DNA of 58,493 nucleotides, counting the filler, from Dugesia japonica (lineage: Eukaryota), in NCBI GenBank assembly GCA_001938525.1. It is 5 parts of 5 records of this genome, joined end to end, with 100 filler letters (N's around TTAATTAATTAA, not from the genome) between each part and the next. Parts side by side here need not be neighbours in the genome. Positions count along the whole stretch, not along the records: positions 49,141 to 58,493 come from MQRL01584027.1; 4 more parts are not named here. One strand, 5' to 3'. Positions within the stretch are counted from its first letter, which is position 1. The number at the start of each line of letters is the position of its first letter. Below are positions 8,389-58,200 of this stretch, piece after piece. Position numbers and translations under genes: made by a program. The notes beneath the pieces were generated by a model, which worked only from the letters and a program-made list of their open reading frames with translations, had not been told where the DNA came from and searched no databases.

Positions 8389-8488
8389 NNNNNNNNNNNN
8401 NNNNNNNNNNNNNNNNNNNNNNNNNNNNNNNNTTAATTAATTAANNNNNNNNNNNNNNNNNNNNNNNNNNNNNNNNNNNNNNNNNNNN
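8389..8488. other. Artificial contig linker N44-TTAATTAATTAA-N44 (also at 16840-16939, 28822-28921, 49041-49140)
   Basis: The identical 100-bp structure occurs four times; the 12-mer puts stops in all six frames. Confidence 0.95.
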
Positions 8489-25700: not shown

Positions 25701-26876
25701 ATGTTGAATACTAATAAAACTGAAGTTCATTTGCAATCCATGGTATGGTATCATGGGCCTATAACTCGTGAAACAGCCGAACAACTATTACAACCAAGAG
25801 AAGAAGGATTGTTTTTGATAAGAGAAAGTGTTAATTATCCCGGAGATTTTACATTATGTGTTTGTTATCAAGATGGTGTGCAGCACTATAGAATTATATA
25901 TGANGGCAAAAATAGATTTACTATAGATGAAGAAGAATATTTTTCTAGTTTAGAAGAACTTGTTGAATTTTATATTTCTGATGCAAATGGATTAGTGACT
26001 TGTTTAACAAAACCTTTACCAAAGTCAGGTCTACCAGTTTATCCACCTGTTATTCACTACTTTCAACAAGCAGGGTGGGTATTTCCTAGAGAAGGTTTAA
26101 GTCTCGAAGAGTGCCTTGGGAAAGGTGACTTTGCAGAAGTTTTTAAAGCTCACTATAATGGTAAAGTGTTAGCAGCTAAGTGTGTATTACAAAGTAGTAA
26201 TTTGACATTTGTCGGAATTAAAGAAGCATCTGTCATGACAACAGTTAAACATTCAAATTTAGTTCAATTTCATGGATTAGTTATTGATTCAGATAAAATT
26301 TATCTTTTAACTGAATATATGTTAAATGGATCTCTTGTAAACTATTTAAGAACACGTGGTAAATCTGGAATCACTCTGTTAAATCAGCTCAATTTTTCGA
26401 TCAATGTTGCAAACGGCATGTCATATCTAGAACTAAAAGGTTTAGTTCATCGTGATCTTGCTTGTCGGAATATACTTTTAGATAAAAATATGGCTGCTAA
26501 AATTGCAGATTTTGGTTTGTGTAGAGAATCAGATTCCGATGAACTCGGAGGTCGTGTTCCGATTAAATGGACTGCTCCTGAAGCAGTTAAATGTAATCAG
26601 TTTAGTTCTATGTCTGATATGTGGTCGTTTGGTGTTGTTTTATGGGAAATTTACAGTTTTGGTAAACTGCCGTACTCGGGTATTTCTGTTCAACATGTTA
26701 TGTCAGAAATTGAACAAGGCTTTCGGTTACCTTGTCCCCAAAATTGTCCACCAGAAATTTATTCTCTCATGGATGCAGCTTGGGTCATTAACCCTCGTCA
26801 TCGACCAAATTTTAAACAAGCTCATAAAATCTTAACCACAATTCTTAATTCCATAAACATATCTTCTCGGTGTTAA
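25701..26876 (+). CDS. Csk: Csk-family non-receptor tyrosine kinase (SH2 plus kinase, no SH3), intronless, 391 aa
   Basis: SH2 [39 protein letters not shown] and linker [12 protein letters not shown]...FQQAGW. Kinase motifs [17 protein letters not shown] and DFGL...PIKWTAPEA. The short activation loop has no Tyr and there is no C-terminal regulatory Tyr, as in Csk. Confidence 0.92.
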
Positions 26877-27924: not shown

Positions 27925-28680
27925 TTAGGTGTTCAGGTATGATGACTGTCGTTTAGTAATGATATATTATTTTTCAATAAAGAAATTTTTGCAAGTTGTG
28001 TTTTTTATCTGAAGTGTAATTTAAGCGTTATCTATTTATATCTTACACAATGTTAGATGACGACATTTGTGTCTAAAAAACGTCATTTGCGACATGCATA
28101 ACATTTTTTATTCGATTTAAAGAAAAGTGCTATCGATGGACATAAAGTGCTTGTAGAGGCTTATGCCTACCATGCTTGGTCTGAAGGATTTTGCCGAGAA
28201 TGGTTTCAACGATTCAAAACCGGATTTGGGTATAAATGATGAGGACTACGGAAAACCACCAAATAAATTTGAAAATGATGAACTGCAAGCTTATTGAACG
28301 AAGACAATGCTCAAACGCATGGAGCAATTGACTGCTTCACTGAATGTAATTAAACATTCAATGGGAAAGGTTCAGAAGGAAGGAAAATGGGTACCTTATG
28401 AATTGACAGAAAGATTCAAGCTGAGAAAATTTTTGATAGAAATGAGTAAAAGAAAGTCTATCCTATATCAAATAGTTATTGAAAATGAATAGTGGATTTA
28501 TTTTGGCAATCCTAAACGTAAAAGATAGTGGATTGATCCAGGACAAACAGCACATTCAACCGTAAAACACAATTTTCATGGAAAAAAGTTATTGCGTTTG
28601 TGATGGGATCAATAAGGTATTCTGTACTATGAACTACTGAAACAGGAGAAACAATTACTGGGGAGCATTATGAACATTAT
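27925..28680 (+). mobile_element. Mos1-like mariner, 5' ITR plus decayed transposase
   Basis: TA|TTAGGTGTTCAGGTATGA...TGTCGTTT ITR, HTH region ...CREWFQRFKTG, and GKWVPYELT motif. Multiple stops; 3' truncated. Confidence 0.92.
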
Positions 28681-29089
28681 TAGTTAAATTCAAAACTTCA
28701 CAACTTTCCATAAATTGTATTTATTATTACAAGTGTATTTGATTAATATAAAAATTATGTCAAGAATAATTCAGTATTCAAACAAATAATCTGAGAAATT
28801 TTTCAATAAAATAATAAATATNNNNNNNNNNNNNNNNNNNNNNNNNNNNNNNNNNNNNNNNNNNNTTAATTAATTAANNNNNNNNNNNNNNNNNNNNNNN
28901 NNNNNNNNNNNNNNNNNNNNNGAAGTGATTCAGTTTATTTTGATATCTAATAAATATTTGTAGTAAATTGTTGTTGTATCTTAACCTAACAATCTGTATA
29001 ATGAATTTTATATGAATCTAGTTTTTGATCAATACAATCTATACATAATTAATTTTGATAATTCTAAAATATTAAAACCAATATAATTA

Positions 29090-29625
29090 AACTTGTCATG
29101 TTTTATAGTATTATTAACAAGATGAACAGCAGCTACATCTTCTGAAAATATCTTTTCTTTTTTAAATGTAGGTTTTGATAATAAATGTTTAAATTTTTTT
29201 GGATCATTTACAATTTTTATATTTTCTCTATTTCTAACATTTTCTAAAGTTTTACCATAAAAAGCATTACATAAAGGTTTAAAGAAATAATCTCCAAATT
29301 TATCATTAGTTCTCTTTGCTATTTTTCTTTGATTGATAAAGTTTTCTATTTAACCTTTTAACCAACGACTTTGTTTATATTTTATTTTTCTATGAATTTT
29401 AACATGTTTCCATTGATTATATACTTTTGTTTGTCATATTGTGTTAATAATAATTTTTCAGTTGGTTTATACTTTGCTGGTGTAATTGATTTTTGATAAT
29501 TTAAAAAATTCATTTATATTTTTTTTATAGTTTTTCTTTATTAGGTAAAAATGGAAAATGTTTTGTTCTTTCTTTAATTTCATTCGGATATTTTAAATCA
29601 ACTTCATAAGTATATTAATCGGATA
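29090..29625 (-). pseudogene. Protein-primed family B DNA polymerase fragment (Polinton/adintovirus type), palm and fingers
   Basis: Minus strand reads YEVDLKYPNEIKERTKHFPFLP ... YFFKPLCNAFYGKTLENVRNRENIKIV (KxxxNxxYGK motif). Confidence 0.85.
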
Positions 29626-30399: not shown

Positions 30400-32201
30400 A
30401 ATAATCCCATAATTATTAGCCATGACACTATTCTTTCTTTCTTGTATAAATCAAAACAAGCCAATAATTGAGTCAATAACACCTTAAACGTTTTCACAAT
30501 AAATATTATTACCAATAATCTTGCCATTGCTTGTCTAAACACTATAAATCGACCCCACGTTTCCTTATATTATATTTGCTGTTGCCTGAGGAAAGTGATC
30601 TGGTGATAACAATAATTTAGTATTCGGTCTCCATTCTGACTTAAACGCTCATCCAGTGACATACACAATGTTTGCTAAATTTTGCATTCGTTTGACTGGA
30701 AAAAATATATGCCTCTGGCTTTTTTCAGATCCTTCAATTTATAAATAGCACCCGCTGCTACATTTAACGGTTTGAATTTCTGTCCAGTTCTAAACTTCAA
30801 CGCTGAAAAATTTCTCACCTATGTATCCACATGTAATCTCTCAGGAAATTGCATCCACTTGTTATTAGCTATTTTAAAGTAAGGTCCAAAAAAATTAGAA
30901 CAGTTCAGTTTATGTGGAACAAATCCATTTGGTGATATTACTCGATTGATAGGCTGCACATATCTCTTTTCCCTTATGTAATCAATTTTCATCTCATTGT
31001 AGCAAGTTTTCTCTTTTGATAAAATTGCTTCTACTCGACTACGTTGATAAATAAACATAACTTCTCCAATAAAATACATCCGAATTACCATCTTCCGATG
31101 GTAACACTGGGGTTACATTGTCAATGTTTGTTATCGCTGTTGCCAATTTTTCCCGCAATATTTCGCGATTTAATTAGTAATCACTATAAACCAAATCATG
31201 ATACATTTTCTCCATAGATTATTGGGTTGGTGATACAGAGTGTCCACTTTATTATTTAAATATAAATGTAACTTGATGTCCTGAGGCAATACTCCATCTC
31301 TCGGCTTTTCCAGTATCCGCTTTTATACGAAGATTCTATTGTACTTAGTTTTATAGGCAATTTCTCCACATATGGCTTCTGATTTTTTTTGGATTAATCC
31401 GATCCTGTTATTCGCATCGGTTGCTATTAGTACGGTTGGGGTGTTTCATTGCTTCTTACACTTTCCCGGCGGCTGGCATTCTCCCCTCTTCCTTTGATTT
31501 AACAATTCTCTGTCTTCCATTCTCATCAAACAAAACCTCTCTAAGAAACGACATTGTGCATTCTTGATGATTGACTTGTTATACGAGAGTTGACTCTCCC
31601 GTGTTACACGAACTATCTGAGGCTAAACACATTGGACACATTTTCATCTTTTTCGTCGTGGTATCAAATAATTCATCAAATTCTTTTAATTCAGCTCAAT
31701 AACTTTCTATTGCTACGACTCCAGCCGCATAGCCGAAAGGACTAGTGTATTTTCCTTGTACGAAATCAATCCTTCTGCGAAAAGGCGGGTTTGTACTACT
31801 TGACTACTTTTGGCATTAATTATCTTCACTTCACTCACGTGTATTTTATCGGTTGCAAATCCAGATTCACATTGTTATCGTGTGATGAGAACATGTATTA
31901 CTTCCATATCTAAGGGTAAAATTGCCGAATAACTACTTCCTACACACCAATACACAAATACTTGCACTGTTACTTTACATTCCATTACCTCTGTCTTGTA
32001 ATAATCTGATTCTTGGTACACATAATAATTCATTGATTTTTGTACTACTTCCCATTTTTCTGGATTTGCCACAGGACATTCATCTGCATCAGTTAATGAA
32101 TATACCGTTTCCCCGATATTCATATAAGCTTGAATTGCTGCACCTCGGCTCATTAAGAACATTAAAATTAACACCATGAACTTTGACTGCATACTGCTCA
32201 T
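30400..32201 (-). pseudogene. Chuvirus-like (class III fusion) envelope glycoprotein pseudogene, endogenous viral element
   Basis: Signal peptide, then AY..YSLTDADEC..Q..EVMECKVTVQVFVYWCVGSSY. Later segments are GKYTSPFG..GVV, CLASDSSC, ICGEIAYKT, MYHDLVY..LNREILREKLATA and GEVMFIY..VE..CYNEMKI..YVQPINRVI..C..PYFKI..W..P. Colinear with the chuvirus G layout; several stops and frameshifts. Confidence 0.8.
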
Positions 32202-34199
32202 TCTTGGACTTCAATTCGTTTCAATTCCATATTCTCCAATATAATCTTTTAATAATGCATGTAATTGTTCGTTTCATTTGTGATGCGAATTCGTTTTTGA
32301 TTTTATCTTTTTGATAATTCCGTTCCACCTTCCGACGTTCATTAATATCGGTTCAATTTGATCGTATATTATTCCGATTATTAGCAGAGCGCTTAACTGT
32401 AATTTCATTTCTGGTCTACAAATTGTCAGAGCTATTTGCGTTTGTTTTACTAAATATGCAAGTGCCACTAATAATCTTCGAGTCATCAAACAATTTGTCA
32501 ATAATCCTTGTACCACCTTTCACCACCTTCTGGTTTAACGTATATTTTATTTTCTACCTTTTATCGGATATCTAATGTTCGATGATATCGTTATTCAATA
32601 ACTCCTAATTATTCAATAGTAATACATATGGCGGTTTGAATGTCATTTTAGATTTTATCTGCTATACTGTCTCGTAAGTCAAANTCGAAATTCTCGTTTC
32701 GTGACCATCTGATTCCACAATTCTGAAGCTAAATATAAGTGGTGTCGGTTCTCCTTCTTCACACTTTTTTTTATATCAATATCAGCAGTTTAAATTGTTT
32801 TGGTCTCCATTTACATTCTTCTTTACATCTGGATAATTTGTAAGTTAATGCTTTCAATTCCTCAATTGACAAATCATTCTGTAATAATTGATCTGCTAAG
32901 TACTCCACGCTAGTTTTATTTATACTTTTCTCCTGAATTTTAGATTGATATTATTGACATAATATCCTATTGTTTTTCTACACAAATTCTCTCTGATTGA
33001 TTTTAATATAAACGGGTTTCTCTCACCTTCTCACTCTTAAAAATATAGACATTCAGCATAGATTCCGGCCATATTCCTGATCTTCTTACTGGATACTCAT
33101 CATGATCCTCAGTGATCTCTCCTCCACAATAAACTACAATATCATATCGTTTAGTAATTGATGTATTCTCTTTTTCACTTGCAATTTATTACCTCTTGAA
33201 TATTCAACTCTGCATTTGACTATAATTCTCATAAATCGTTAGTGATATTTTTGCTGTAGTTTGTTTCAAACGTTTCCACGGTTCGCTTTCATTTTCTTAT
33301 TCTGCTTTTCGTTCAATTTCGTCGTCAGTACCGATTCTCAAATATTCCATTTTATCTATTTCGTTTAAGTACAAACAAATAACCATGACTTATACTTTCC
33401 ATTTAATATTATTTTTCGAATACTTTTATTAATATTTCGATTTAAAAACCTGTTAAAGTTTAGAAATGTACCTTTAGTATACTCATAACTGAAATAAGCT
33501 TGGATGATCAATCAACGCTGAATGAATTGTTCTCGAGAATCAACCAACTAATAAAAATGTCAGATACATCATTCATCAGTTTGAAGAGATCGCCGATGAA
33601 AATTCGAGTAAATCAATGATTACAGCAGAAATACTCGGATATAAGAAATTGGAAAACAAAGTGGCTCCAATATGGAAAGTTAAAAGTACTAAAAAGATAG
33701 AATAGATTTGTTATGTTAGTAAATATTTTAAGTTGAACATGACTTTTAGTTATTACTGTTGTATTTAATTAATGTTGTCTTATTATTTTATAAAAATTAA
33801 TTAAAAGTACAAACACAATGAAAACAANATTTAATCAATAAATTTTATAATTTTCTAAATTTCGTTTGTTGACAGCATATGTAAGAATACTGAAAATGTA
33901 TTAGTTCATCAAAGTAGATTATAATTATATTATAATTATAATTAATATTTATTATTACATTATTATTATTATTAAAATTCTTTATTAAAAAAAGGTGAAA
34001 CATTCTTATTTTTGCTGGTAGATAATTTTAAATTGTAACATTTTAAAAAAAAAACACATTTGATGTAATTCTAACAAAAACACTTGGATTAGTCAAATAA
34101 AAATATTCCGGGGCGATATAATTGCAACTCAAGGAGCTGATGAATTTAGAGTATAAAATCAAAATTTTTTAATGATATAGAAGTTGCAATCAAGTGAAT

Positions 34200-34500
34200 A
34201 TTCAAGGATAGTCAATGTCCATTATACATCCAGATAATTTACAAACGGATTTAAGTAAGAAATTTTACAAATNAGAAGTTAAAAATTTTCTATCACAAAC
34301 TAATCATAAACTGTTATACTGTACTTTAACAAACAAGGGGGGCTCATGAAGAAACATTTAGTTGTACACTAAGAGATGCTTTGAAAAAATACTTTATGTA
34401 TAGTGATAATAGAATATGCGTTGCCAAAATATATTGATAATTATAATCATTCATCTCATAAAAGTTTAAAAGAATCAAGAACAGTTGATGTTGTTGCATC
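34200..34500 (+). pseudogene. Retroviral-type integrase fragment (Polinton type)
   Basis: PDNLQTDLSKKFY..EVKNFL...LPKYIDNYNHSSHKSLKESRTVDV matches P..LQTDxGxEF...YN...H.s....P..V. Confidence 0.75.
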
Positions 34501-34647
34501 TTTGAATTATTCCAAAAAAAATTTCTATTATTTAGTTAAGCCTGTCTTGATAGAAAACAAACTATTGTTTTATCTCTTAGATTTTTAAATAGTACCAAGT
34601 ATTGAACATTTATATTACGGGTTCTATGATAATAAATAATAAATTAC

Positions 34648-41597: not shown

Positions 41598-43499
41598 AAT
41601 TGCAAATCAGTTATCTGCATAAATATTTGTAAAATGTTATACAAAAACTTTAAAGATTATTGGGAGAGAGTCATGTGTGAAGCATTGATAATTAGGTCAA
41701 TTGATCCTAAAATTAGTGTTCCAATTGATCTTTCTAAATCTTTATTGAATGTTTTTAATTTATTTGATTTATCTAAGAGATTGCATAATTGTTTATATAA
41801 ATAGAATTTTTATGTAATTTGGAAAATGGGTTTTGTCTTTTATTCACCCCAACTACAATACATTTCATATGGAAATAATGCATCTTATGCGTGCTGCAGT
41901 TTATACAACAAAAAATTACATATTCAAAAATAACCACCCTACAACTAATACGTGCTGCGGCCTATCTCGGGATTTTACAGTAAATAATAATTAAATTAAA
42001 TTCGGTAATAAAATAAATAACTTACTGTTTTGGAGGATATCAATGACAGTTTGAATTAAAATAAAAATTGGAATAAATATTACAATACAAATAGTTTCTA
42101 AATGGAAAATATTAAAATAAAAATTTGGCTATTTGAAAATTTATTTTACTGACTTAAAATGATTTATATCAACAAAAGTCATATAATTAAATTATATTTG
42201 TTGAATGTGTGAGTGTAACGTTATTTGAGTCCATGCTTGTGCATTTTTACAACAGTTTCAGTATTTATTCTTGCATCTTTGAAAAATAACTTCAGTTTAG
42301 TCGTACAATACTCTAACTAAAAATTTTAAAAAGTCAGTTTTAATAATATTAGGTTATACATATTTAATGTCGTTTTATCTAATTTCAAAAATATTACCCT
42401 ATTTTGATTGTTATTTGTGATAAGTGATTTTATATTTTAGCATGTATTATAAAATTTTTAAAGAAATTTAATGTATTCTGTAAAATCGTGGAGCAATGTG
42501 CATTTTATGTTAATTAGGGTTAGAAATAAAATATTTTTGTCTTTAGTAGAAATCATTAAAACAAAATAAGAAAATAATAAATAATTTATTTCGTTCAATT
42601 AATAAAATAATTTCTGATCACTAATTTTATCTTTAGCTACACTGGAGCACATTATATCAGCTTTATTAATTGAAATAGAAGGTTTGGTCACCAACATAGC
42701 TACATGTGATGTTAAAACAAACTACTCGTGTAATTTTGATTTTAACTATCTGCAGATACAGGTGTTGTGTCAGAAAATATTTCACAAGTACTTACCGTTA
42801 GATCAGTCTGTAACACTCATCGTTGCATTTAAAAGAATTGATACTTTTCATTTTTAAAATTTATTCAAATACAAGACAAACAAAAATCAACATAAATTTA
42901 TGTTTTCAAACAAACTTCAAAAATCTATAATTGATAATAAAAGAAAGAAAAATGGTTTATTAAATTATTTAATAATAAAATTTTAAAATATAATAATAAT
43001 GTTTTAAAGAAAATTAGCAATTAAACTTATTTCAGAATTTTTATAATTTCAAAAATATGTATTACTTAGGAATTATAAATTTTAAATATACACTGTAAAT
43101 TACAAATTTCAAAATTTATTAAAAATTCGTTTTGTCTAAATGATTCATAAATTAAAAAATTCCATTTCTTGATACATTTTATTACATACAATTTTAATAT
43201 TATATATTTTTTATTTATAAACCTTCAATTCCAAATTTTAAAATTTTACTGCAAATTATAAATTTAAAATTTCATTTTCTTAAAACTACCTTACACTTAC
43301 TTTTACTAAACATCAGTGACAAAGAAAGTGATTTGTTGTTGCTTTGGCTGAAAAGTCAATTTTATTCTGCAATTTAGATCGAAAAAAACATGGAAATACC
43401 AAGACAAACACTACTATTTATTCCTAATTTCATTCCTATTTATTCCTATTTCATCCAAAAAATCTTTTACTATATCATATTTGTAATAATAATATATAT

Positions 43500-46150
43500 T
43501 TGGAAAAGTATTGCTTAATTTAATTATGAACACAACATTTAGTATCAGATATTACAGCGACAGTTGTAATCACTACATGTTTAAAATTCCTCAGTTCATG
43601 CGCAATATCAAACTCTGGTTTCTGCAAGTGGATAACTCTTTCAAACTTGTCAGGATTAAGTTAGAATCAAAAAATTTCCAACACATAATATGCAATTTGC
43701 TAGTGGAAATTCTTGAAGAATATGAAACATTTCTTGACGATTCCCGTGATCCATGCTACACTGATAAAAATATTGCTCTTTTGGAAAAAAAATAATCACC
43801 CCCATGACTTTGGAATTTATCTTTGCAGATGTATCCCAACCTATATTGGTTGCTGATATTTTTGCATATCACGATGTTAGTATTAACTGCAACAATATGA
43901 GCATAACATTTTCTACTTCTGAGTAAACTATATCTTGACATTCTAGACTATAATATTGCAAAAAATAAGTATAAACAATAACATAAAAAGTAAATCAGTA
44001 GCACAGAAGTCTTGATGATTATTATGATAATTCCTTTAAAAAGATAACTCGATAGCCTATTTAGAGCTAGAAAATTTTGCTCAAGTAATAGCGAGTGGGT
44101 TTTATCACTTGTGGTCGTTAAGAAACAAAACGAATTGAAAGAACTTTGTGGACACTACAGACAATCAAATGAACTAACTAAACCAGACAAATAACCTTTA
44201 CCTAGAATCCAAGATCTATTGGATAAACTTTAAAACGTAACTACCTTAAAAAAAGCATTTTACCAGGTACTGATAGCAGAAAATGACATTCTTAAAACTG
44301 CAGTTATTACACCATTTTGGTTTTAATAATTACTGCAAAATACGGTTTGGATTGAAGAATTGCTCGGCTATTTTTCAAGGATTTATAGATACAATTCTGA
44401 GAGAGCATCAAGACTTTTTAATATCATACGTTTATGATATTCTTATATTTTTAAAAAATGAAGCAGACCATGAGGATAATCTACTAAAAGTAACTAACAC
44501 CATTCTATTTGGTTAGAGATAAATTGGGATAAATGTATTTTTTGGTTGCTTCAATTAAAAATTTAGGATTCAAGATATCAGATAATGGAATCCTTCCTAA
44601 AACTAAAACAATTGAAAGCTTGATAGAAATAAGCCTTACAGTCAACTTAAAGAGCTTACAAAGATTTTTAGGCTGCGGTGGCTATTATCATTGGCTCATT
44701 CCAAATTTATCTGAAAAGATTTCACCACTTTACAAGCTAATCATTGAAAAGAAAAAGTCGAAAGGAAGTATAATTGAATAGACCACTTATCAAGTAAATG
44801 CTTTCAACACTATCAAAAATGCACTTCTAAATTTATAGCAATCGAATTACACAGACAAGTCAAAACAATTTGTATTAAGAACTGGTGCATTTTTAGAAAC
44901 AGTACGAGGTGCATTGGAGCAAGTAGGTTCAGAAGGAACACATACTCTAATCGCATTGGTCTCAAGTTAATTGTCTTCCGCAAAGAGAAATTACTCAACC
45001 ATCGACAGAGAACTGCTAACAGTAATTCTTGTAGTTCAGAATTTCAAGCATTATTTAGATTCTACAACATTTAGACAGACCATCAGCCTTTATTAAAGAT
45101 TGTAACTATGCAATATCCGAATCCCAGACATTTGAAACGGGTTGAATTTTTCTCTCCATTTTCCTTCAAATTAGAATATTTGAATGGATCGGAGAACAAA
45201 GTAGAAGTATTATTGTCAAGAATAAACGCACCTATCAAGGAAATTGAACACATCACAGTGAGTGAAATAATCAAATAGCAAGCAACCAAGAACCTTAAAG
45301 CATCAATAAACACATTTTCCTTGAAATTAAGTGTCTCTGACGAAGAAATAGTTATAGACATATCGCAACCCAAACCGCAAATAATTCTATTAGAAACTTT
45401 CAGAATTCAAAAGGATTCAAGATAGCTGCCATGCTGGAGTAAAAGCAACCACAACACTGGTAGCTTAGAGGTATGTTTAGCACAAAATAAGATCAGATAT
45501 TTGTGAATGTTGCAAAAGATATGAGAATCGCCGACATTCAAAAATTCAGAGGCATGCGAAATTTCCAATGGTGACATTTTTTTGATACTTGAAGATTCAA
45601 ATATATGCATTTTGAATTAGTAGAATCACTACCAGAAATACACAATAAGTGGTATCTATTGACAATGATTGATAGAAAAACTTCATGGATTGAAGCAGTT
45701 TCATGTCTTGACATAACATTCAATTACGTGATTAACATATTATTTAATACGTGGATCAGTCAATTTTGAGCTCCAGAAGTCATTGTCACAATTATAGGAT
45801 AACTCTTCGAGTCAAAGGCTTTTGAAGAATTTGGTAAAAATATTTGCATCAAACATAGAAAATCGAATGCATACAACCTCAGAATCAAATGGTAAGATTG
45901 AAAGATGGCTGAGAACTCTAAGGAATGCACTTCGGGCCACGTCAATAAACGCAAACAAGGAGTTGATCCAAAAACAATTTTATTTTTAAGAAACCGTATT
46001 AGTCCAAACAACAAAGCGTCACCATCTCAACTCACGATATGTATAAACACAAAATTTTCAGGTGATATCATAACTTCAGTTGACATTTTTGACGACCATG
46101 ATCCATCCGTCGAAAAATCAAAGACAACATCAAGACTTTAGAAGTGCTGA
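43500..46150 (+). mobile_element. Second decayed Ty3/gypsy retrotransposon pol
   Basis: RT LVVVKKQNELKxLCGHYR..N..TKPD..PLPRIQDLL, IRFGLKNCSAIFQ..YVYDILI, LKSLQRFLGCGGYY, RNase H RELL..F.TDHQPL and integrase YLLTMIDRKTSWIEAV. Many lesions. Confidence 0.9.
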
Positions 46151-47064
46151 AAATCAATCGGAGCTTAAATAGAAAGTCAAAAGTCAATAAAGATCCGTTG
46201 AACTGCGAAAATAGCAATACAATCAAATCTCCCTATAATGTCAACCATCGGGACTAGAACTGAGTGACGTTATAGAGAGGTTCGACGGTATATTTATTCT
46301 TCTACATGATAATGCAAGATGTCATAGTTCTAAAATCACCGAAGAAAAAATATTATAGTGAGGTTAATTTTATAAATTTAAAATTTTTTGTTTAAGGATA
46401 AACACTTTAATTTGAGTAAGCAAAAAGTTTTTCTATTAGGCAAATGAAGCTTAAATAAAATAAAATAATTTACTTTGATTTGGTGTTGTTGAAATACCTG
46501 AAATATATTGAAATTATTAACTATTAAGTTAAATAAAATAGTTAAAAGTAATTTAAAATAAATTTAAATAAAAATCAAATTTTAATTATTTTATGTTATT
46601 TTAGATTAAATTAATTTCTATTGATAAAAATAAATTGTATATAGCATTTTAGAACACATACCAATCAATATATGGTCGGGTAGAAAAGTGTTAACATTAT
46701 AAATTATTAAACAAGTACNAATGTGAGTAGATTGGNANATNCTTAAAGAGTAACAACGGGAGGGAAAAGAAGAGGAATAGAAATGGGAGAAAAAATGCTT
46801 GATCAGAGTAAATAAATGAAGAAATCAAAATTGAAGATAATAAATTATTTGGAAATAAAAAAAATTCTTTAATCTGTGACATTAATAAATAAACAAGTAA
46901 ACATGCTAACTAAATAATGATTCAAGAAGTTAAAGAAGAAAATGATTTATTCTGTAGCAAATAAATTAGATTTAAAATAAATGTTTTATTAGCTCATTAA
47001 ATAATCTAATTTCAACCAAAACAAAACGGTATAATGGTACTCACAACATTTATTAAAATGACAT

Positions 47065-47484
47065 TTATAATTCATCTAACACATCAGTTTCTAGCCACTG
47101 GTCTGGGTCAAGCGTTTAAAAATGGAAGGCCGCGACATCATTACCGTCGTCCCATTGGACCCAAGTTGGCTGTCCCATCTGACGGGAAAGGTCGGCGATG
47201 TATTGTTTTAGGAAATCTATTTTCCTCAACAGTAGTTGCTTGGTCTCTGCTTCCAAGGTAATGGTTTGGGCCGCCAAATCATTCTGCTTTTTAACTATTA
47301 AGTCCAATTTTTTTATTAACCGATTTCGCTGAGCCAAAAATTTAAGGAGGACCCGGTCTGTTTTACGCTTTAGGTGGGGTTCCACCAACAGACGGCGCAT
47401 GATACGATGGCATCGGTGAAGACTGTTAAGGAAATTAATGCGAGGCACTAAAAGAGATTTGATTATTATAGGGTCACTTGACAT
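47065..47484 (-). pseudogene. Orphan bZIP/leucine-zipper-like ORF (139 codons, one internal TAA at 47116-47118)
   Basis: A basic stretch is followed by L-x6-L-x6-L heptads (LAAQTITLEAETKQL). The frame continues past the TAA as TLDPDQWLETDVLDEL*, then AATAAA. Confidence 0.5.
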
Positions 47485-47558
47485 CAGAATTTAAATGAAA
47501 CATTAAAATAAATTCGTAAGAAAATTTTAGATAACCAATTTATTTACAATGAAAAAAA

Positions 47559-47927
47559 CTATTGCAATTTAGTTCTGGGGGTCTGGGTGCTCTTCTCGAC
47601 CATCAACGGCTCAATGGGTATACGTGTTTGGAGACGTAGGATGTCATCGGCCAGTTTATTTTCACGGTCATGGTCGGATCGGATAACTTCAGCAAAGGAT
47701 TCGACCTGTCTTTTCCAGGTTCGTTCCTGCAGGTGGGAGGCCTAGGCTTCTTTCCTGAGAGCGATACATTTTTTTCTATATCTAGTCACTTTACTATGGG
47801 CAGTGGTTATCTCGGCCTCCCACCGAGGTTTTGCAAGTCGATACAAGTCCCACGTGAGCTCTATGTCTTTGCTGGTTTCTCTCATTGATTTGGTAGGAGC
47901 CGTGGAACAATTTAGCGATAAATGCAC
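47559..47927 (-). pseudogene. Orphan coiled-coil-like ORF (~122 codons, one internal TAG at 47742-47744)
   Basis: Preceded by a TTTCAG acceptor. The frame continues ...ASHLQERTWKRQVESF...KSTQTPRTKLQ*, then AATAAA. Confidence 0.45.
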
Positions 47928-48119
47928 TGAAAGAATTTATAAACCATCAAACATCATAAAATGAACTATTATTTCTACGACGTATTTTTCAGGGTGTACT
48001 TACAACACACCACAATAAAAAAAATATACATTAAAATTTATTTTGTAAAGACGTCTAACAAAAGCAATTTGATGACTATAGAATTATTTTATTGCAACAT
48101 ACACAGAGTGCATACACCT

Positions 48120-48467
48120 CTAAGAAGTGGTTATAGAGTCCGAAGTGGGTGCAGAATTCTCAGAGTCTTCACTACCCAAGGGTTCTCTTACACTCCAGAG
48201 TAAATTATTGATGAATGTCTGTACGGCGGGGTTTGGAGCTGATGGTTGGTACTGAAAAGTGGTGGCGAGGTTGCGAACAGGCCCTGTCCAAAGTTGATAG
48301 TTACGCCGCTCCCCGAAATCTTGTATTCGGGGGACGATGGCCTCCACTATTGGTAAATTAGATCTATCCGCTAAGATACCTGCATCCGGATTGTGAGGGT
48401 TGTGATGTCGTCTAAAGATTATTCGACGAGTTCGTCTATCAATAACTTGCTCCGATATAGATTCCAT
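48120..48467 (-). CDS. Orphan 115-aa ORF
   Basis: Open frame, GC-rich relative to its flanks, with a TTTTCGTAG acceptor 2 nt before the ATG and AATAAA ~30 nt after the stop. Confidence 0.5.
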   Translation of the reverse strand: MESISEQVIDRRTRRIIFRRHHNPHNPDAGILADRSNLPIVEAIVPRIQDFGERRNYQLWTGPVRNLATTFQYQPSAPNPAVQTFINNLLWSVREPLGSEDSENSAPTSDSITTS

Positions 48468-48609
48468 ATCTACGAAAAATGGAATAAATATTAAAGTTCA
48501 AATAAAACAGCATTAAGATGTAAGAAACAATTTATATCAACAATTATGAAAACATCACAAGGTTTTATACATATTCTATTTTATCATCGGGATGTTAACA
48601 AAACCAAAA

Positions 48610-48759
48610 TCACTCCTTATCCAGGTCTACCCCATCTTCCAAGGGGAACATCTCTGCAAGACAGTCAAGGTCTGTCTCATCTGGGTGCTCTACCTTCCCT
48701 CTGGTCAGTATGTAAGATATCAACTGTTTTGACTGACTAATTTGATGCTGCTTTTTAAT
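48610..48759 (-). CDS. Putative terminal exon (IKKQHQ...DLDCLAEMFPLEDGVDLDKE*)
   Basis: 49 open codons after a CATTAG acceptor; higher GC; upstream exon not identified. Confidence 0.35.
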   Translation of the reverse strand: MKKQHQISQSKQLISYILTRGKVEHPDETDLDCLAEMFPLEDGVDLDKE

Positions 48760-49140
48760 CTAATGTAGGGTAAGATACAATTCTGCTGGCATGAGCTAAA
48801 GAATAAGATCATTTATCGCGGTGTTTAACTCATGACTTAGCTCCCCAAAACGAATAGTTGTCGCTGACTATTATTGTTAATATGGGGTTTACCTCAATAA
48901 AAAGATAATAATTAAGGGAATGTTATTAATTTTGATGGTAATAATCTCGTTAAGGAGATAATAATTAATGGAAGTATATACAAGCATTCAGACGCACGAT
49001 ACCAACTTATAATTTTCCTATTATAGAAATTGATAACAACNNNNNNNNNNNNNNNNNNNNNNNNNNNNNNNNNNNNNNNNNNNNTTAATTAATTAANNNN
49101 NNNNNNNNNNNNNNNNNNNNNNNNNNNNNNNNNNNNNNNN

Positions 49141-49499: not shown

Positions 49500-49985
49500 A
49501 TGACCAGATTATTATCATCGGGTTCAATTCGTGTTAAATGATAATCGTTCTGCTCTGATTCTTTTTCCTTTGATAATCTCGATTTGTTGTCTGATAGGTA
49601 TATTGCTGCTCCATGTTAATATCAATCCGCTGTGAAAAGGTTATATGTATAGTTGGCTAGTCAACATTCGATTAGGTTCTTTTTGTATAAGTGTGTCAAG
49701 AAAAGGTATTTTGTTATATATTGCTTCTTCTAACGTGAATTGGATGTTACTCTTGATATTGTTGGCTATATTAAGAATATTTTCTGTGGTGGTATTGGTT
49801 TTGAAGAACATTTCATCTAAGTATCTTAGCCAAAGTTTGAATTTATTATTTGCTTTATGAATGCTTCCTTTTTCAATGTGATCCATGTAAATAATGGCTA
49901 ATATTGTGTATAAGTTATTGCCCATAGCAAAACCTTTTTTTTGTTTATTTAACTGATTGTAATATATAATACTGTCTTAGGTGAG
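49500..49985 (-). mobile_element. Penelope-like reverse transcriptase fragment
   Basis: KGFAMGNNLYTILAIIYMDHIE...WLRYLDEMF...NIQFTLE...IPFLDTLI...HSGLILTWSS. Continues into the same thumb sequence seen at 1580-1640. Confidence 0.9.
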
Positions 49986-50348: not shown

Positions 50349-52287
50349 GTTGGGCTTCCACCTGAGTTTGATGGAAAAGAATATGACTGAGGGAAAAGGT
50401 CAGCCTATAGGGGAACCCTTAAAGTCCTTGTTTTCGGTTTTTAGTACATGGACCTTTTGTTTTAATTTGTACAAATTTTGACGGGAAATTTATTTTTATT
50501 TTTGTGATTGATTAAAAAAAATTAATTTTTTTTAGCAAGGTTTACTGTGTTTGTGCGCTCACATCAACCGTATAAGTTACTAACCATCTTAGATTTAAGA
50601 ATTTTTTGATCGGATCGTATTTTAGATCGGATCGGATTTCTAATCATATCAGATTTCTGATCAGATAACATTATTGATCAATTCACGTTTTTGATCGGAT
50701 TACATTTTTGACTGGATCTGATTTTGTATTGGATCAGATTTTTTTGATAGTTAATTTTTCTTTATTTTCCTTTTTTTTAAAAACTTTATAATTTTTTTTA
50801 AAAATTTTCTCTATCTTTTTATAAATGATCCACGATAACATATGACACAAAAGCAAACACAACGTTATGAGTTATCGAGATACCCGATAACATATGGTAC
50901 AAAATCAAGTACAGGGCTATCTAATATCAAGCCCCCAGCCCCCCACCAGGCGGGGTTGAATTGGAGGCTTGATAACACCTAGTGTGTTTGATTTTGTGTT
51001 TGATTTCATTGGTCGGATGGTGATTGGTTGCGGGGAGATCTAGTTTGGTTTAATTTTCAAGTAATTTGGTCGTAAATTTAAATTTTTTTTCGGCGGGATT
51101 TTTTTTATTCTTATTTTTCTTTTCTCTATCTTTTATTTTTTGGCGCGAAATTTAAAAATTTTTGTTGATTTTTGTGTTTAATGAAAAAGGAACACGTGAG
51201 ACATGTGTCGATGTAAAGGTTTGGTAATTTATGAGGTGATGGTGTATATGTGTGTGTAAAAATGTATATTTTTCAAATGAAAATCACAACAGAATGTGTG
51301 TCGGGAGTAGATAGATAGTGGCACATGGGCACAATTTGGCAATGAGCCGAAATTCGGGCACCATTATTTTTAAGCAGTTATCCCTCCTCCCGGGGGCTCG
51401 GAAACACATTACGCTTAAGCTGCGTTTTTTTACCATGATTTTTGTGATCGATTTTTTTTTCTAAGATTTTTGCGATGAAAAAATTTTTGATCGGATCAAA
51501 TTTTTTTTTGATCTGATTAGTTTTTTTTATCCTGAAGTTGTGTGTGTGTATTTTTAAATTTAAATTTTCTTTGTGTTTGCGTTGTAAAGGTGCTTTTTGA
51601 TAAGTAGATCAAGTTGTGTTTGTGTGTGGTTGTGTGTGTGTGTAAAAGACTGAAAAAAAACGAGGAGTAGTAGCTGGAGATCTTGGAGATAATGTTTTTT
51701 GGATTTTAAAGATTTATTTCTTGTCGAACAAAAATTTGGTCTATATATTGTCTCTAGGACTTATGACTATGGATTGATGGTTTTCACCACAAGGGTAGTG
51801 GCACACGAGCACAAAGTATGAGTTATTGTGGGTGGTTTTTTTTTGGTTGTAGTTATAAATCTTGTTGATGGAATTTGTTGTTTGATGGCCTCTTTGAGAG
51901 GTAATGTGATGTTGAAGATGGTGGTTGTCGAATGTGCTTCGATTTTTTATTTTAAGGATTGGTTTATTTTGTAAGTAGTCAAGCTGTGTTAAAAAAATTT
52001 TTCGTGAGGTGAAGGTTGGTATGTGTGGAAAGAGAATTATTTATCAGATTTTATAAGATTTATTTGAAATTTTTCTGTCGGGTCGTTATGACGTCATAGA
52101 TTTTTGAAATAATTAATTTAGTAAAAAATGCTGTATATTGCTTAATTTGATGAATTTAATGCAAGTAATATCATTTTTTAGTTTTCGATGTATTTTTGGT
52201 TATTTTTTCAGTATTTTGATCAGGGAAGTGTTGTTTTGTAAGATTTTCAACTGGGGAAGAGGGAAGTCTTGATACTTTTGAAAACTT

Positions 52288-52415
52288 TTTTGGCGGGAAA
52301 TTTAAAACTTTTCATTTTGGCGGGAAATTAAAAAAAAATTATTTTGGCGGAAAATTCAAAAAAAAATATTTTGGCGGGAAATTTAAAAAAAAGTTATTTT
52401 GGCATGAAATTGAAA
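52288..52415. promoter_or_regulatory. Tandem array of five E2F-site plus CHR-like motifs (TTTGGCGGGAAA-TTTAAA/TTCAAA) inside the TIR
   Basis: ~27-bp period; fewer copies in the right arm (56005-56045). A palindromic CRE TATGACGTCATA lies at 52087 and 56236. Confidence 0.55.
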
Positions 52416-52499
52416 AAAAAGGAAATTTTTCATTGCAATGGGTAGAAAATTTTTATTGCAATTAAATTAAATTTAATTAAATTACTTTTTTATGTAAGA

Positions 52500-52960
52500 G
52501 ATGGGGTAGACTTGATATTTTGCACGCAGTCTCTATATTTTGCATATGATGGGCAATCTTGACATTTTTTAAGATATTTATGCATGGTATGGGCAGACTT
52601 GATACTTTTTAAGATATTATTACAAGAAATTTATGCATGTTATGGGCAGTCTTGATATTTTTTTAAGATATACTTACAAGATATGGATAGTCTTGATATT
52701 TTTCAAGATATTATTACAAGATATGGGCAGTCTCGATATTTTGTAAGATAATATTACAAGAAATTTATGCATGTTATTGGCAGTCTTGATATTTTTTAGA
52801 TATTATTACAAGATATTAATGCATTTTATGGCCAGTCTTGATATTTGTTTAAGATATTATTACAAGATATGGGCAGTCTTGATATTTTTTAAGATATTAA
52901 TACAAGATATCAGAGTTTTGGTATTTTGCATGGTATGAGCAGTCTTGAAATTTTGATTAG
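52500..52960. repeat. ~40-bp minisatellite (TATGGGCAGTCTTGATATTTTTTAAGATATTATTACAAGA) within the TIR; inverted copy at 55630-55900
   Basis: Directly visible; copy number differs between the arms. Confidence 0.9.
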
Positions 52961-53244
52961 GGAGTTACTATATTTAACTTGGGAGCCTCTATATTTAGCA
53001 TAGGATTGGACAGTCTCAAATTCATAGGCATGTAATTTTCAGTGTATGTGTGTTGCATCTGAGCTGTATACCTTTTGCATTTAAAATATTAATAAAAATT
53101 CCCATACATGTGATTTTTAATGCATATGTATTGCATCTGAGTTATAACTGAGTTGCATTTAAGAAAAATCAAAATGGTGGCTACATTGAGTTTTAAAAAT
53201 TCTCAGACTTGTGATTTTCAGTGTATGTGTGTTGTTTTATTGTT

Positions 53245-55230
53245 GTTGTATTATAAGGCTTACGCGTATATTATTTACAAAACAACCTTTTAATGGTTTT
53301 TTGTATGTAATATTTACATAGCAACCTTGTATTATAAGGATTATGAGTGTATTATTTACATATCTACTGTGTAATATAAGGCTTACGGATGTATTATTTA
53401 CGTGAAAACTGTATAATATAATACTTATGAGGAAAATATTTACATAACATACTTGTATAATAAGGATTATAAGATTTATGAGTGTATTATTTGCGAAACA
53501 ACCATTTAATATATGATTTTTATGAGTATTATTTACATCAAAACCATGTATTATATGGTTTATGAGTCTGTATTTTACATAGTTACCTTGTATTATAAAG
53601 TTTATGAGTATAATTTTTGATAGTTGCCTTGCAATATATNTATATAGCAANCATCTATTATAAAGATTCTCAGTGTATTATTTGCATAGTTATCTTCCAT
53701 TATTTCCATAACGACTGTGTAATATAAGGTTTACGCGTATATTATTTACAAAACAACCGTTTAATGGTTTTTGTATGTTTCAATTTATTTGTATAAATTA
53801 ACAAGAATAGATAACTACTGGTGTGAAACAGAGTTATTTCCTGCTCTAAGACTTGTAAAATATGACTATTTATCTGTAAATTAGTTCTCAACAGGAAAGC
53901 TAGTAATACTAAAACTAAACATTTTGAATTTTCAAGTATATGTAAATAATACAACTTTAGAATTTTTTTAATTTTATTGAAAAAACATGGAAAATTCGCA
54001 ACACAGGTGGAATACAAGTACAACAAATAATAACAATTTAAATTTAGATATTTAAATAATACACACAAAAACCATATATTAAAAGGTTGTTATGTAAAGA
54101 TTACATGATATCTAACCAAATCATATATTCGTAAACTTTATATTACAGGATTACTGTGTATTAATACACTCATAAGTCTTATATTTCATAAACCGTATAT
54201 TTCATGGTTGCTATGTAAATAATACACTCATAATCCTTTTAATCCTTATTATACACAGTTACATGTAATTAATATATTGATAAACCTTATAATATAAGGT
54301 TACAATGTATAATTACCCTCATAAATTCTATATTACATTGTTGCTATGTCAATAAAANATGNTAACTGTGATTTATATTCTGAATTATATAAATAAATCC
54401 TATAATACAAGNTATCAATGCAAAACATACACTCATTAACCCTCTTCCTTCTTTTACCTTCTTCCTTCTTTTTTACCCTCTTCCTTCCTTTACTTTATTC
54501 TTATTTTACCCTCTTCTTTCTTTTTTACCCTTTTCTTTCTTAACCCACTACTTTCTTTTACCCTTTCCTTTCATTTTCTTTTACTAATCCTTCTTTAACC
54601 CTCTTCAATCTTAAATTCTATACACCATTAAACCATATACACTCATAATTCCTATACAGATTTAAAGATTACTTAAAGATTTTATATAGACTTATTATAT
54701 NNNNNNNNNNNNNNNNNNNNTGATTTTTATGAAAAGAGTTCATGGCTTTTTAAAATTTTGTAAAGAAACGTTCCCAGCTAATAGGTTTTTGTAATAGAAA
54801 ATTGTCACTAGTAAAATGCATTTTTATGGACAAATTGTATCACCAATAGGTTTTTATACGAACAATGCATCACCAATATGTTTTATTTTAAAAATTTCAT
54901 TGTCAATATGTTTTTTAATGGAAAATTACATCACTAATGAGATTTTTTATTAAAAATTGTAAAACTAAAGANNNNNNNNNNNNNNNNNNNNNNNNNNNNN
55001 NNNNNNNNNNNNNNNNNNNNNTATTAAAAATTGTAAAACTAAAGAGATTTTCTATTAAAAATTGCAACGGTAATGATATTTTTTATTTAAAATTGTAAAA
55101 CTAAAGAGATTTTTTATTAAAAATTGCAACGGTAATGATATTTTTTATTTAAAATTGCAACTGTAATGAGATTTTTTATTAAATAATTGTATCACTAATG
55201 ATATTTATATAGACAATTAGCACTAGTAAT
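53245..55230. repeat. Interior of the TIR element: degenerate ~40-bp repeats in inverted blocks (53245-53770 vs 54060-54440), a pyrimidine tract (54440-54610) and a 39-bp tandem repeat (54780-55230)
   Basis: GAGTGTATTATTTACATA... and its reverse complement; AATGAGATTTTTTATTAAAAATTGCAAC units. Confidence 0.85.
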
Positions 55231-58200
55231 ATGTTTTTGAATAAAGTTCTATGTTTTTTATCATTTTCTAATGAAAAATTTTAATTTGAATATTTATTTA
55301 TGTAAATATCACAAAGACTTCCCTCTTTGAGGTTTTTTATTTGAATATTTTAATAAAAGTTATATTTATTATGTAAATATCACAAAGACTCCCCTCTTTG
55401 AAGTTTTTTGATAGATAATTTTTCATAAATGCAACTCAGAAGCATTACAGCTGCAACACACATACACAGAAAATCACAAGTCTGGGAATTTTTATTAATA
55501 TTTAAAATGCAAAAGGTATACAGCTCAGATGCAACACACATACACTGAAAATTACATGCCTATGAATTTAAGACTGTCCAATCCCATGCTAAATATAGAG
55601 GCTCCCAAGTTAAATATAGTGGCTTCCTATTCAAAATTGCAAGACTGCTCATACCATGCAAATTACCAAGACTCTGATATCTTGTATTATTATCTTAAAA
55701 AATATCAAGACTGCCCATAAAATGCATTAATATCTTGTAATAATATCTTAAAAAATATCAAGACTGCCCAAACCTTGAAGTAATATCTTAAAAAATATCT
55801 AGACTTCCAATAACATGCATTTATATCTTTAAAAATATCAAGATTGAGCATCATATGCAAAATATAGAGACTCTGCATGAAAAATATCAAGTCTACCTTA
55901 TCTCTTACATAAAAAAGTATATTAATTAAATTAAATTAAATTTAATTTAATTTAATTGCAATAAAAGATTTTCCCCCATTGAAATGAAAAAAATCCATTT
56001 TTTTTCAATTTCCTGCCAAAATAATTTTTTAAATTTCCCGCAAAAAAAGTTTTCAAAAATATCAAGACTTCCCTCTTCCCCAGTTGAAAATCTTACAAAA
56101 CAACACTTCCCTGATCAAAATACTGAAAAAATAACCAAAAATACATCGAAAACTAAAAAATGATATTACTTNNNNNNNNNNNNTCAAATTAAGCAATATA
56201 CAGCATTTTTTACTAAATTAATTATTTCAAAAATCTATGACGTCATAACGACCCGACAGAAAAATTTCAAATAAATCTTATAAAATCTGATAAATAATTC
56301 TCTTTCCACACATACCAACATCCACCTCACGAAATTTTTTTTAACACATCTTTACTACTTACAAAATAAACCAATCAAAAGTAGCCCTTAAAATAAAATA
56401 TCGAAGCACATTCGACAACTACCATCTTCACTATCACTATACCTCTCCAACAAGCCATCAAACAACAAATTCCATCAACAACATAAAAAACTACAACCAA
56501 AAGAAAAACCACCCACGATATCTCATATTTTGTACCCGTGTGCCACTACCCTTGTGGTGAAAACCATCAATCCAAAGTCATAAGTCCTAGAGACAATATA
56601 TAGACCAAATTTTTGTTCGACAAGAAATAAATCTTCAAAATCCAAAAATAATTATCTTCAAGATCTCCAGCTACTACTCCTCGTTTTTTTCAGTCTTTTA
56701 CACACACACACAACCACACACAAACACAACTTGACCTACTTTTTAAAAAGCACCTTAACAACTCAAACACAAAGAAAATTAAAATTTAAAAATACACACA
56801 CACATCTTCAGGATAAAAAAAACTAATCAGATCAAAAAAAATTTGATCCGATCAAAAATTTTTTCATCGCAAAAATCTTAGAAAAAAAAATCGATCACAA
56901 AAATCATGGTTAAAAAAACGTAGCTTAAGCGTAATGTGTTTCTGAGCCCCCGAGGGGAGGGAGAGGGGGCTCGATAACTGCTTAAAAATAATAGTGCCCG
57001 AATTTTGGCTCATCGCCAGATTGTGCCCATGTGCCACTATCTATCTACTGTCAGGCGATAATTTTCGGGTTTCGATAATATGTTTGAGTTTGCTATTGAA
57101 ATTGACCTATAGGTTGCTAAAGGTAAGTATGAGCTAAAATGTTTGTGTGTTGAATAAATGCAGCTTTTGTGTTCCAAAATTGACTTTCATTTGTATTTTT
57201 ATTAAAATAATTAACAAATAGTATCTTACTAGTATTATATATAATACTAGTAGGATACTATTTATTATTATTTTTTTTGAAAACCAAGGATACAAAAATA
57301 GTAGTATATTTGTATTATATATGTTTTAACTAAGTCAAGTTACAGGAATTTCAATTTTTTGTTTTAATTATCAAATAAATTTAGCGGGAAATTCAAATTT
57401 AAAAAAAAACTTTTGGCTGGAAAATTTTTTTCGAAGGAAAATCCTTTTTTTAAAATTTTTTTTGGCGCAAAGTTTAAATTTTATTTTTAAAATTTGTAAA
57501 TTAAAAATTTTTTTTGGAGATTTTTGAAAAAATCTTTCTTTTATTCGTATTTTTCTTTCCTCTATCTTTTTTTTGGCGCGAAATTTAAAATTTTTTTGTC
57601 AAGAAATTTAAAAATTTACGACGCATTTTTGTGTGAATGTCTGTTGCAATTATGTTGCTTCCCTATTGTTAGTATATATTATTTAATACTTATAAAAAAT
57701 AACCAAATGGTTTTATTATAAAATTTTTATTTAAAATATACAAAGAGCTGAGTTTTTAAAAAGAAATCATTAGCGTATAACTTTAAAAAAATTTCATTAC
57801 AGTTGAACGTTTTATCCAATACTACAAAGGCGCGGTCAGTTCTGACATATAATAAAGGAAGTGGTGATCTGTTACTATCCTTGTTCTCTAGATTTTGATT
57901 ATTTATTATTATTAAAACAGACCACTACTACATGTTAAAGCAAGCCACTACTATTATACACTAATTGTATATTGCCTGTTTTTGTTTAAATGCATCAGTA
58001 TATTAAATCGGTTTCTCATTTTATATTAAACCTATTTTTTAAATTGTCTATTAAATTTAATACTAGTACAATACTTATAATAATGTAAAAAGCTGATACA
58101 TTACTTGGTATATGTTTCTTATTTATTTTCACTTATATAAAAACATTATTAGATTCTTTTGAGTATATTTCTGAAACAGAAATACAATGTTCACCAGAAT

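Follow-up and report, generated by a model that had tools for sequence, protein, structure and literature searches.

The genome of the planarian Dugesia japonica carries, in a 58,493-nt stretch of assembly GCA_001938525.1 (hereafter the window), a ~5.7-kb element with long inverted arms, whose inverted repeat ends exactly at positions 51306 and 57049, within the part taken from MQRL01584027.1. The element is one insertion with a 6-bp target-site duplication (TSD), has arms of a single lineage, abundant ends and subterminal satellites, and holds no genes. We read it as a gene-less, foldback-shaped derivative of the Polinton (Maverick) transposons that belongs to an abundant, structurally mixed family moved in trans, a reading to which we give a probability of roughly 0.4; that the element is of Polinton origin, taken by itself, is probable. 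The window consists of five joined pieces, so distances across its linkers are not real.

Polinton-type ends and long inverted arms

Aligning the two arms to each other revealed AG...CT ends whose outermost 30 bases are identical and open with AGTAGATAGATAGT, pairing being lost at the very next outward base. The hexamers directly outside, GTCGGG and GTCAGG, agree at 5 of 6 bases. Among TSD lengths of 2-12 only length 6 fits, and at this one site the probability of a flank match of at least 5/6 is ~0.0009-0.001 per length tried, whether it is derived from base composition or from counts across the window. Other lengths gave agreement at 2/7, 4/8, 1/9 and 5/10 bases, and neither these nor termini moved inward to TA ends provided a fit. 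The arms, which form the terminal inverted repeats (TIRs), measure 1,864 and 1,632 bp and are 95.0% identical (1,493 of 1,572 aligned columns; the differences comprise 35 transitions and 44 transversions); they include one 136-bp stretch without any difference, and the gap in their lengths is mainly due to unequal unit numbers in two minisatellite blocks. The outer 115 bases folded no better than shuffled sequences (z -0.73), indicating that there is no terminal hairpin. These results confirmed the AG...CT termini with short repeats, the 6-bp TSD with one mismatch (chance ~0.001) and the highly similar 1.6-1.9-kb arms that a first, sequence-only reading of the window had described.

Polintons are recognized by a 6-bp TSD, AG...CT termini and a short terminal repeat (PMC8097293, PMC4196379), all of which are found here together with long TIRs. 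The terminal AGTAG repeat agrees at 5 of 6 bases with (AGT)2, the commonest terminal motif of vertebrate Mavericks (PMC8097293), and the earlier assignment of the ends to the Polinton type, made from the TSD, the AG...CT termini and this repeat, is supported on sequence grounds. Both arms exceed the maximum TIR length of vertebrate Mavericks, which ranges from 46 to 1,447 bp (PMC8097293). The accompanying statement that Polinton TIRs are usually under ~1 kb needs adjusting, since butterfly Polintons have gene-containing TIRs of ~2 kb (bioRxiv 10.1101/2025.02.07.637071), and such long arms are less exceptional than it had made them appear.

Planarians have Polintons that are silenced by piRNAs (PMC8532177), and the window itself contains a decayed protein-primed DNA polymerase B (pPolB) of Polinton type (Table 1), showing that the host lineage has Polintons. 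Among full-length PF03175 proteins, the two closest share 51-63% identity with its pieces, and full-length relatives are 1,132-1,292 aa long. No loci of these relatives were found in viral contigs, and three metagenome loci (4.0-6.5 kb) were without similarity to the arms, giving only short low-score AT-rich matches to the element. A comparison of the outer arm with phage records returned no match.

An interior with no coding trace

The interior comprises 2,248 bases, with 1,649 under self-similarity and 964 in Tandem Repeats Finder arrays. It runs from a 42-bp array through a spacer, an inverted 42-bp array and a C/T-rich array to a 20-N join, beyond which come a 31-bp array, itself interrupted by the 50-N gap, and finally a 71-bp pair. 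The 42-bp array aligned to its inverted copy with a score of 119, compared with at most 44 in 200 shuffles. Stretches of 242 bp (53780-54021) and 220 bp (54578-54797) occur once within the element, which contradicts the earlier description of an interior made only of minisatellites.

We found no coding trace in the element. The longest open reading frame (ORF) starting with ATG encodes 63 aa; none of the 37 stop-to-stop frames of at least 45 aa matched Pfam, one of the 37 gave a weak PHROGs match (E 0.008, function unknown), and searches of the element for Rfam families and for pPolB found neither. The pPolB, integrase, ATPase, protease and capsid genes and the 13-25 kb length of an autonomous Polinton are thus absent from an element that is read across two unbridged gaps. 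These interior gaps lie at 54701-54720 (20 N) and 54972-55021 (50 N), a third being in the right arm at 56172-56183 (12 N). No listed contig spans either interior gap, and the terms "complete" and "gene-less" therefore hinge on the gap sizes. The 12-N run corresponds to exactly 12 bases of the left arm, which suggests that the sizes of small gaps are reliable, and the sequences flanking the 50-N gap share a 24-base overlap, the other three 50-N gaps of the window giving 34, 58 and none. As indirect evidence, this correspondence and overlap suggest that both interior gaps are small. In the sequence-only reading the element had been called complete and gene-less: the second term agrees with the lack of any gene trace, while completeness is unproven in view of the two unbridged gaps.

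Abundant ends and a rare centre

Sequencing runs matching parts of the window numbered seven, from three studies. Contigs of four runs from four studies were aligned to 54413-58000 (~3.6 kb) at 85% likeness; the fourth run (X8), which bears the same species label but gave just 431 contigs and zero depth at each of the three listed sites closest to the terminus, was left out because missing coverage proves nothing. In the remaining three runs of three studies, 30,724-34,588 contigs aligned per run, and summed depth 36 bases from the terminus reached 41,600-60,800 versus 30-39 in the last, distal bin of the flank. Low-depth contigs closely matching the flank had a depth of ~4-14. Corrected for the maximal overlap factor (31) and for a depth of 12-14, these totals gave a lower bound of 95-143 ends, and an overlap factor of two would give 2,000-3,000. 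These data indicated that the end sequence is very abundant, with a floor of about 100 ends and plausibly thousands, whereas vertebrate Mavericks have a median copy number of 8 and reach 287 at most (PMC8097293).

Over the satellites at 54893-55372, depth (64,000-157,000) is on a par with that of the arms, and these satellites are therefore a property of the family. The inner-arm module at 55373-55492 reached 18-26 times the terminus depth in the three runs and may be a major satellite of the genome. At the 71-bp pair, contigs of other copies jump back 45-126 bases or continue into more units, and such looping or continuing contigs in the 31-bp and 71-bp satellites show that unit number varies among copies. 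We also found a joint skipping 1,278 arm bases (depth 221, one contig, one of four runs) and another skipping 112 arm bases (depths 96 and 64, one contig per run, two of four runs), both well above single-copy depth, suggesting that rearranged forms have been amplified.

Among the 40 best-supported of 254 variant rows, 30 are right-arm sites at which the element departs from the majority of contigs; at these the left arm has the minority letter in 14 cases, the majority letter in 15 and a third letter in one. Minority letters common to both arms at 14 of 30 sites indicate arms of one lineage which later drifted apart, a pattern in keeping with a single old insertion but not with a repeat collapsed in assembly.

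Several observations weigh against an abundant Polinton-derived family. In each of the three runs, depth falls 50- to 121-fold from the terminal bin to the centre (54533-54772), with summed depths of 528-1,129 per bin there and 50,000-64,000 in the terminal bin; at 54662 depth is 12.8, 0 and 56.6, which is near single-copy, and the exact 5.7-kb unit has therefore not been mass-amplified. Summed depth is not copy number, matching at 85% likeness may attract other AT-rich repeats, tandem units inflate the totals, and some of the minority letters common to both arms may reflect cross-mapping. The 24 rows displayed included no loose ends at the terminus. Exact terminal patterns matched twice within the window, at the element's own two ends, and nowhere in the metagenome, viral (two patterns) and prokaryote collections. 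Neither these scans nor the contig rows displayed brought to light a second insertion, a further TSD or an autonomous element sharing the ends. The terminal hexamer AGTAGA is no exact published motif, and the polymerase relic lies on another linker-joined piece, with nothing that links it to the element's ends.

Proposed mechanism and alternative origins

Being gene-less, a family member would need both polymerase and integrase from a helper. On the basis of established Polinton biology (PMC4196379, PMC8097293), a Polinton-type integrase would make a 6-bp staggered cut at the AG...CT ends, and the terminal AGTAG repeat would serve as origin for the helper's protein-primed polymerase, a short repeat permitting jump-back priming. 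The paired long arms would form a racket-shaped intermediate in which arm pairing maintains their likeness during copying, while slippage and template switching would vary satellite unit counts and combine modules in ways particular to each lineage, which would explain why arms are abundant and the centre rare. The present copy would have inserted into another repeat with similar motifs and then decayed until its arms were 5% apart. The sequence-only reading had already proposed a satellite-like parasite mobilised in trans, and the highly repeated ends in three studies are what a trans-mobilised family would show, whereas the centre of this copy is low-copy. We consider doubtful the more far-reaching version in which hundreds to thousands of gene-less foldback satellites of a Polinton virus, copied and integrated by the polymerase and integrase of a helper that they far outnumber, seed a major satellite DNA of the genome from their inner arm modules.

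The strongest alternative, itself on the unlikely side, is that an autonomous Polinton integrated here and later lost its coding core by deletion, the ends being joined at ~54610-54770 and the abundant ends elsewhere representing autonomous or once-autonomous copies. The low-copy join falls exactly between the left modules (42-bp and C/T-rich) and the right modules (31-bp and 71-bp), and is a likely place of either core loss or module joining. Arms 5% apart allow time enough for decay, and 96% of vertebrate Maverick loci are decayed, some genomes having hundreds (PMC8097293). An intact TSD had been taken to imply integration as a unit, with later internal deletion allowed for; it would outlast a core deletion and does not separate the two histories. 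The absence of any coding remnant speaks against a relic, since both deletion breakpoints would have to lie in non-coding DNA, as do an end abundance that equals or exceeds the top Maverick counts on record and arm-deletion joints above single-copy depth.

An origin outside the Polintons, as a non-autonomous transposon of foldback type that moves by cut-and-paste, with a superficial Polinton likeness and satellites that are multiplied transposase-binding sites, appears improbable. The element does have long, modular, internally repeated and unequal TIRs around a variable non-coding middle, which is foldback anatomy; cut-and-paste families reach very high copy number more often, and no enzyme ties the ends to Polintons. 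In contrast, a terminal AGTAG repeat is characteristic of Polintons, and the foldback elements Tetris and Galileo make TSDs of 8-10 bp (PMC4079207) and 7 bp (PMC3573991), whereas lengths of 7-12 fail here with at most 4/8 and 5/10 matches. The 7-10 bp required of a Mutator- or P-type foldback does not agree with the TSD found, and IS3EU/GingerRoot elements, which do make 6-bp TSDs, have TA..TA (sometimes TG..CA) termini (PMC10045372), unlike the AG...CT ends here. Some hAT families make 6-bp TSDs as well.

Least probable is an assembly artefact, in which a scaffold built from short reads bridged a gap between the two ends of what is really a longer element, or filled in one arm from reads belonging to its partner, making the element look short and gene-less: very high repeat depth favours mis-joins, a 136-bp stretch is identical between arms and the 20-N gap lies within the low-copy join, but the matching TSD places both ends at one site, 79 mismatched columns and unequal unit counts show that the arms are not one collapsed sequence, the 12-N and 50-N runs fit their surroundings, and a depth-12 contig spans the right junction (57020-57163) with three differing letters, reaching just 30 bases inside where the rule asks for 31.

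To our knowledge, the process of Polinton copying and integration has never been directly shown. If the family is indeed moved in trans, it would define the minimal cis-acting ends for both steps, gene-based Polinton counts would miss most Polinton output in some animals, and virus-like elements would be tied to the birth of satellite DNA, as is known for foldback transposons. A mere deletion relic would be an ordinary fossil with unusually long arms.

Insertion site and other features of the window

The element interrupts a host repeat (~50350-57620) that shows the same strand skew on both sides of the insertion and has a 65-bp direct repeat across it (51099-51163 and 57535-57596, 89%). Host repeat and arms have TTTTGGCG-type and GATCGGATC motifs in common, and summed depth in the right flank is 8,800-33,700 at 57127-57156. 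The host repeat could represent the end of an older element related to this one. Within the arms, the terminal motif is putatively both the integrase end and an origin of protein-primed replication, copies of the subterminal motif TAGTGGCACA..G.CACAA are a possible protein-binding site, and the TTTTGGCGGGAAA motif of the 27-bp minisatellite presumably resembles an E2F site.

Table 1 Features of the element, its insertion site and the polymerase relic, in window positions
Feature	Position	Strand	Remarks
Decayed protein-primed DNA polymerase B, Polinton type	28957..29614	-	three pieces in different frames, ending near linker
Left part of interrupted repeat	50350..51299	+	short motifs and strand skew as in arms
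Left TSD copy GTCGGG	51300..51305	.	flank comparison
Left arm (TIR)	51306..53169	+	1,864 bp; alignment to right arm
Terminal short-repeat motif AGTAGATAGATAGT	51306..51319	+	at both ends; motif class per PMC8097293
Second internal copy of subterminal motif TAGTGGCACA..G.CACAA	51795..51814	+	mirrored in right arm ~56530-56549
27-bp minisatellite with TTTTGGCGGGAAA motif, left arm	52281..52420	+	right arm 56000-56057, shorter
40/53-bp composite minisatellite, left arm	52535..52910	+	right arm counterpart 55677-55859, fewer units
42-bp minisatellite, first member of inner inverted pair	53246..53779	+	self-comparison
242-bp spacer, unrepeated within element	53780..54021	.	self-comparison
Inverted diverged copy of 42-bp minisatellite	54022..54435	-	~65-85% in local matches
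C/T-rich 17-19-bp minisatellite	54436..54606	+	tandem-repeat analysis
Low-copy central join, including 20-N gap	54607..54772	.	contig depth
31-bp minisatellite, degenerate on left side, including 50-N gap	54773..55245	+	tandem-repeat analysis
71-bp tandem pair	55290..55422	+	unit number variable among contigs
Right arm (TIR)	55418..57049	-	1,632 bp; 12-N run where left arm has exactly 12 bases
Right TSD copy GTCAGG	57050..57055	.	flank comparison
Right part of interrupted repeat	57056..57620	+	itself repeated in genome

The window has a G+C content of ~25%, and its pieces are joined by four identical 100-base linkers (44 N, TTAATTAATTAA, 44 N) at 8389-8488, 16840-16939, 28822-28921 and 49041-49140. 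An unbroken 391-aa CSK-like ORF at 25701-26876 (+) encodes SH2 and kinase domains with no SH3 in frame; it has an 89% relative, and the named match of highest identity among the 120 listed is from the flatworm Cichlidogyrus (55%). A broken mariner-like transposase presumably lies at ~28200-28800 (+), judging by motifs in translation. Remnants at 11670-14245, 44533-45074, 49641-49976 and 1779-2042 we take to resemble retroelement integrase, reverse transcriptase and GIY-YIG domains; the four frames scanned against Pfam gave no integrase, reverse transcriptase or GIY-YIG match. A 37-40% G+C island at 46900-49000 contains two orphan minus-strand ORFs (47116-47490, coiled-coil-like, and 48120-48497), a search for whose homologues found none. 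A 21-bp minisatellite at 1-556 is open in frames on both strands, and a frame at 43493-43795 (+) matches DUF7041 at the cut-off score. Fragments at 30819-32210 (-) match Monjiviricetes_fusion (PF24664), a Pfam family of mononegaviral fusion glycoproteins. Planarian Burro elements have an env of this type (PMC6431247), and the fragments probably represent what is left of an env in a decayed retroelement similar to Burro. Together, the Cichlidogyrus match and these fragments point to a flatworm as probable host, most likely a planarian.

Comparison with known systems

The element has the 6-bp TSD, AG...CT termini, AGT-type terminal repeat and long TIRs of Polintons and Mavericks (PMC8097293, PMC4196379). 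Unlike them, it is 5.7 kb long instead of 12.7-24.6 kb, has none of eight core genes, carries non-coding, minisatellite-filled arms and opens with AGTAGA instead of (AGT)2, and its ends are probably far above the median of 8 copies.

Polintons of Pieris butterflies that lack PolB are still mobile (bioRxiv 10.1101/2025.02.07.637071). They resemble the element in having Polinton ends without self-copying and, in related elements, TIRs of ~2 kb; they keep other Polinton genes, however, and carry retroelement cargo, and the 2-kb TIRs have genes in them, whereas the element is gene-free. Long Polinton TIRs and mobile polB-less Polintons are thus already published. In Polinton family names, an N marks a non-autonomous family. 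Polinton ends without the full gene set are already a category in repeat libraries, as represented by the zebrafish family Polinton-1N1_DR, known here by name only (PMC9341505), and by TIR-only remnants in C. elegans (bioRxiv 10.1101/2024.01.15.575659). Polinton-N1A_NV retains a capsid gene (PMC11296320), so that an N-type name does not imply a gene-less element, and a study of the anole reports an apparent absence of non-autonomous copies there (PMC3014272). A fully gene-less, high-copy Polinton family had no description in the literature searched, a scope outside which lay the founding 2006 paper, Repbase entries and supplements.

With Tetris and two-TIR Galileo the element shares long, modular tandem-repeat arms of unequal length around a variable non-coding middle, and the inner units of both may amplify into satellite DNA, to which the situation here is similar (PMC4079207, PMC3573991). 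In Galileo, the gene-less copies have the longest arms (PMC3573991). Unlike the present element, Tetris and Galileo belong to the Mutator or P superfamilies and have 7-10-bp TSDs and other ends. The ends of the element thus work like those of a non-autonomous Polinton, and its body like that of a foldback element.

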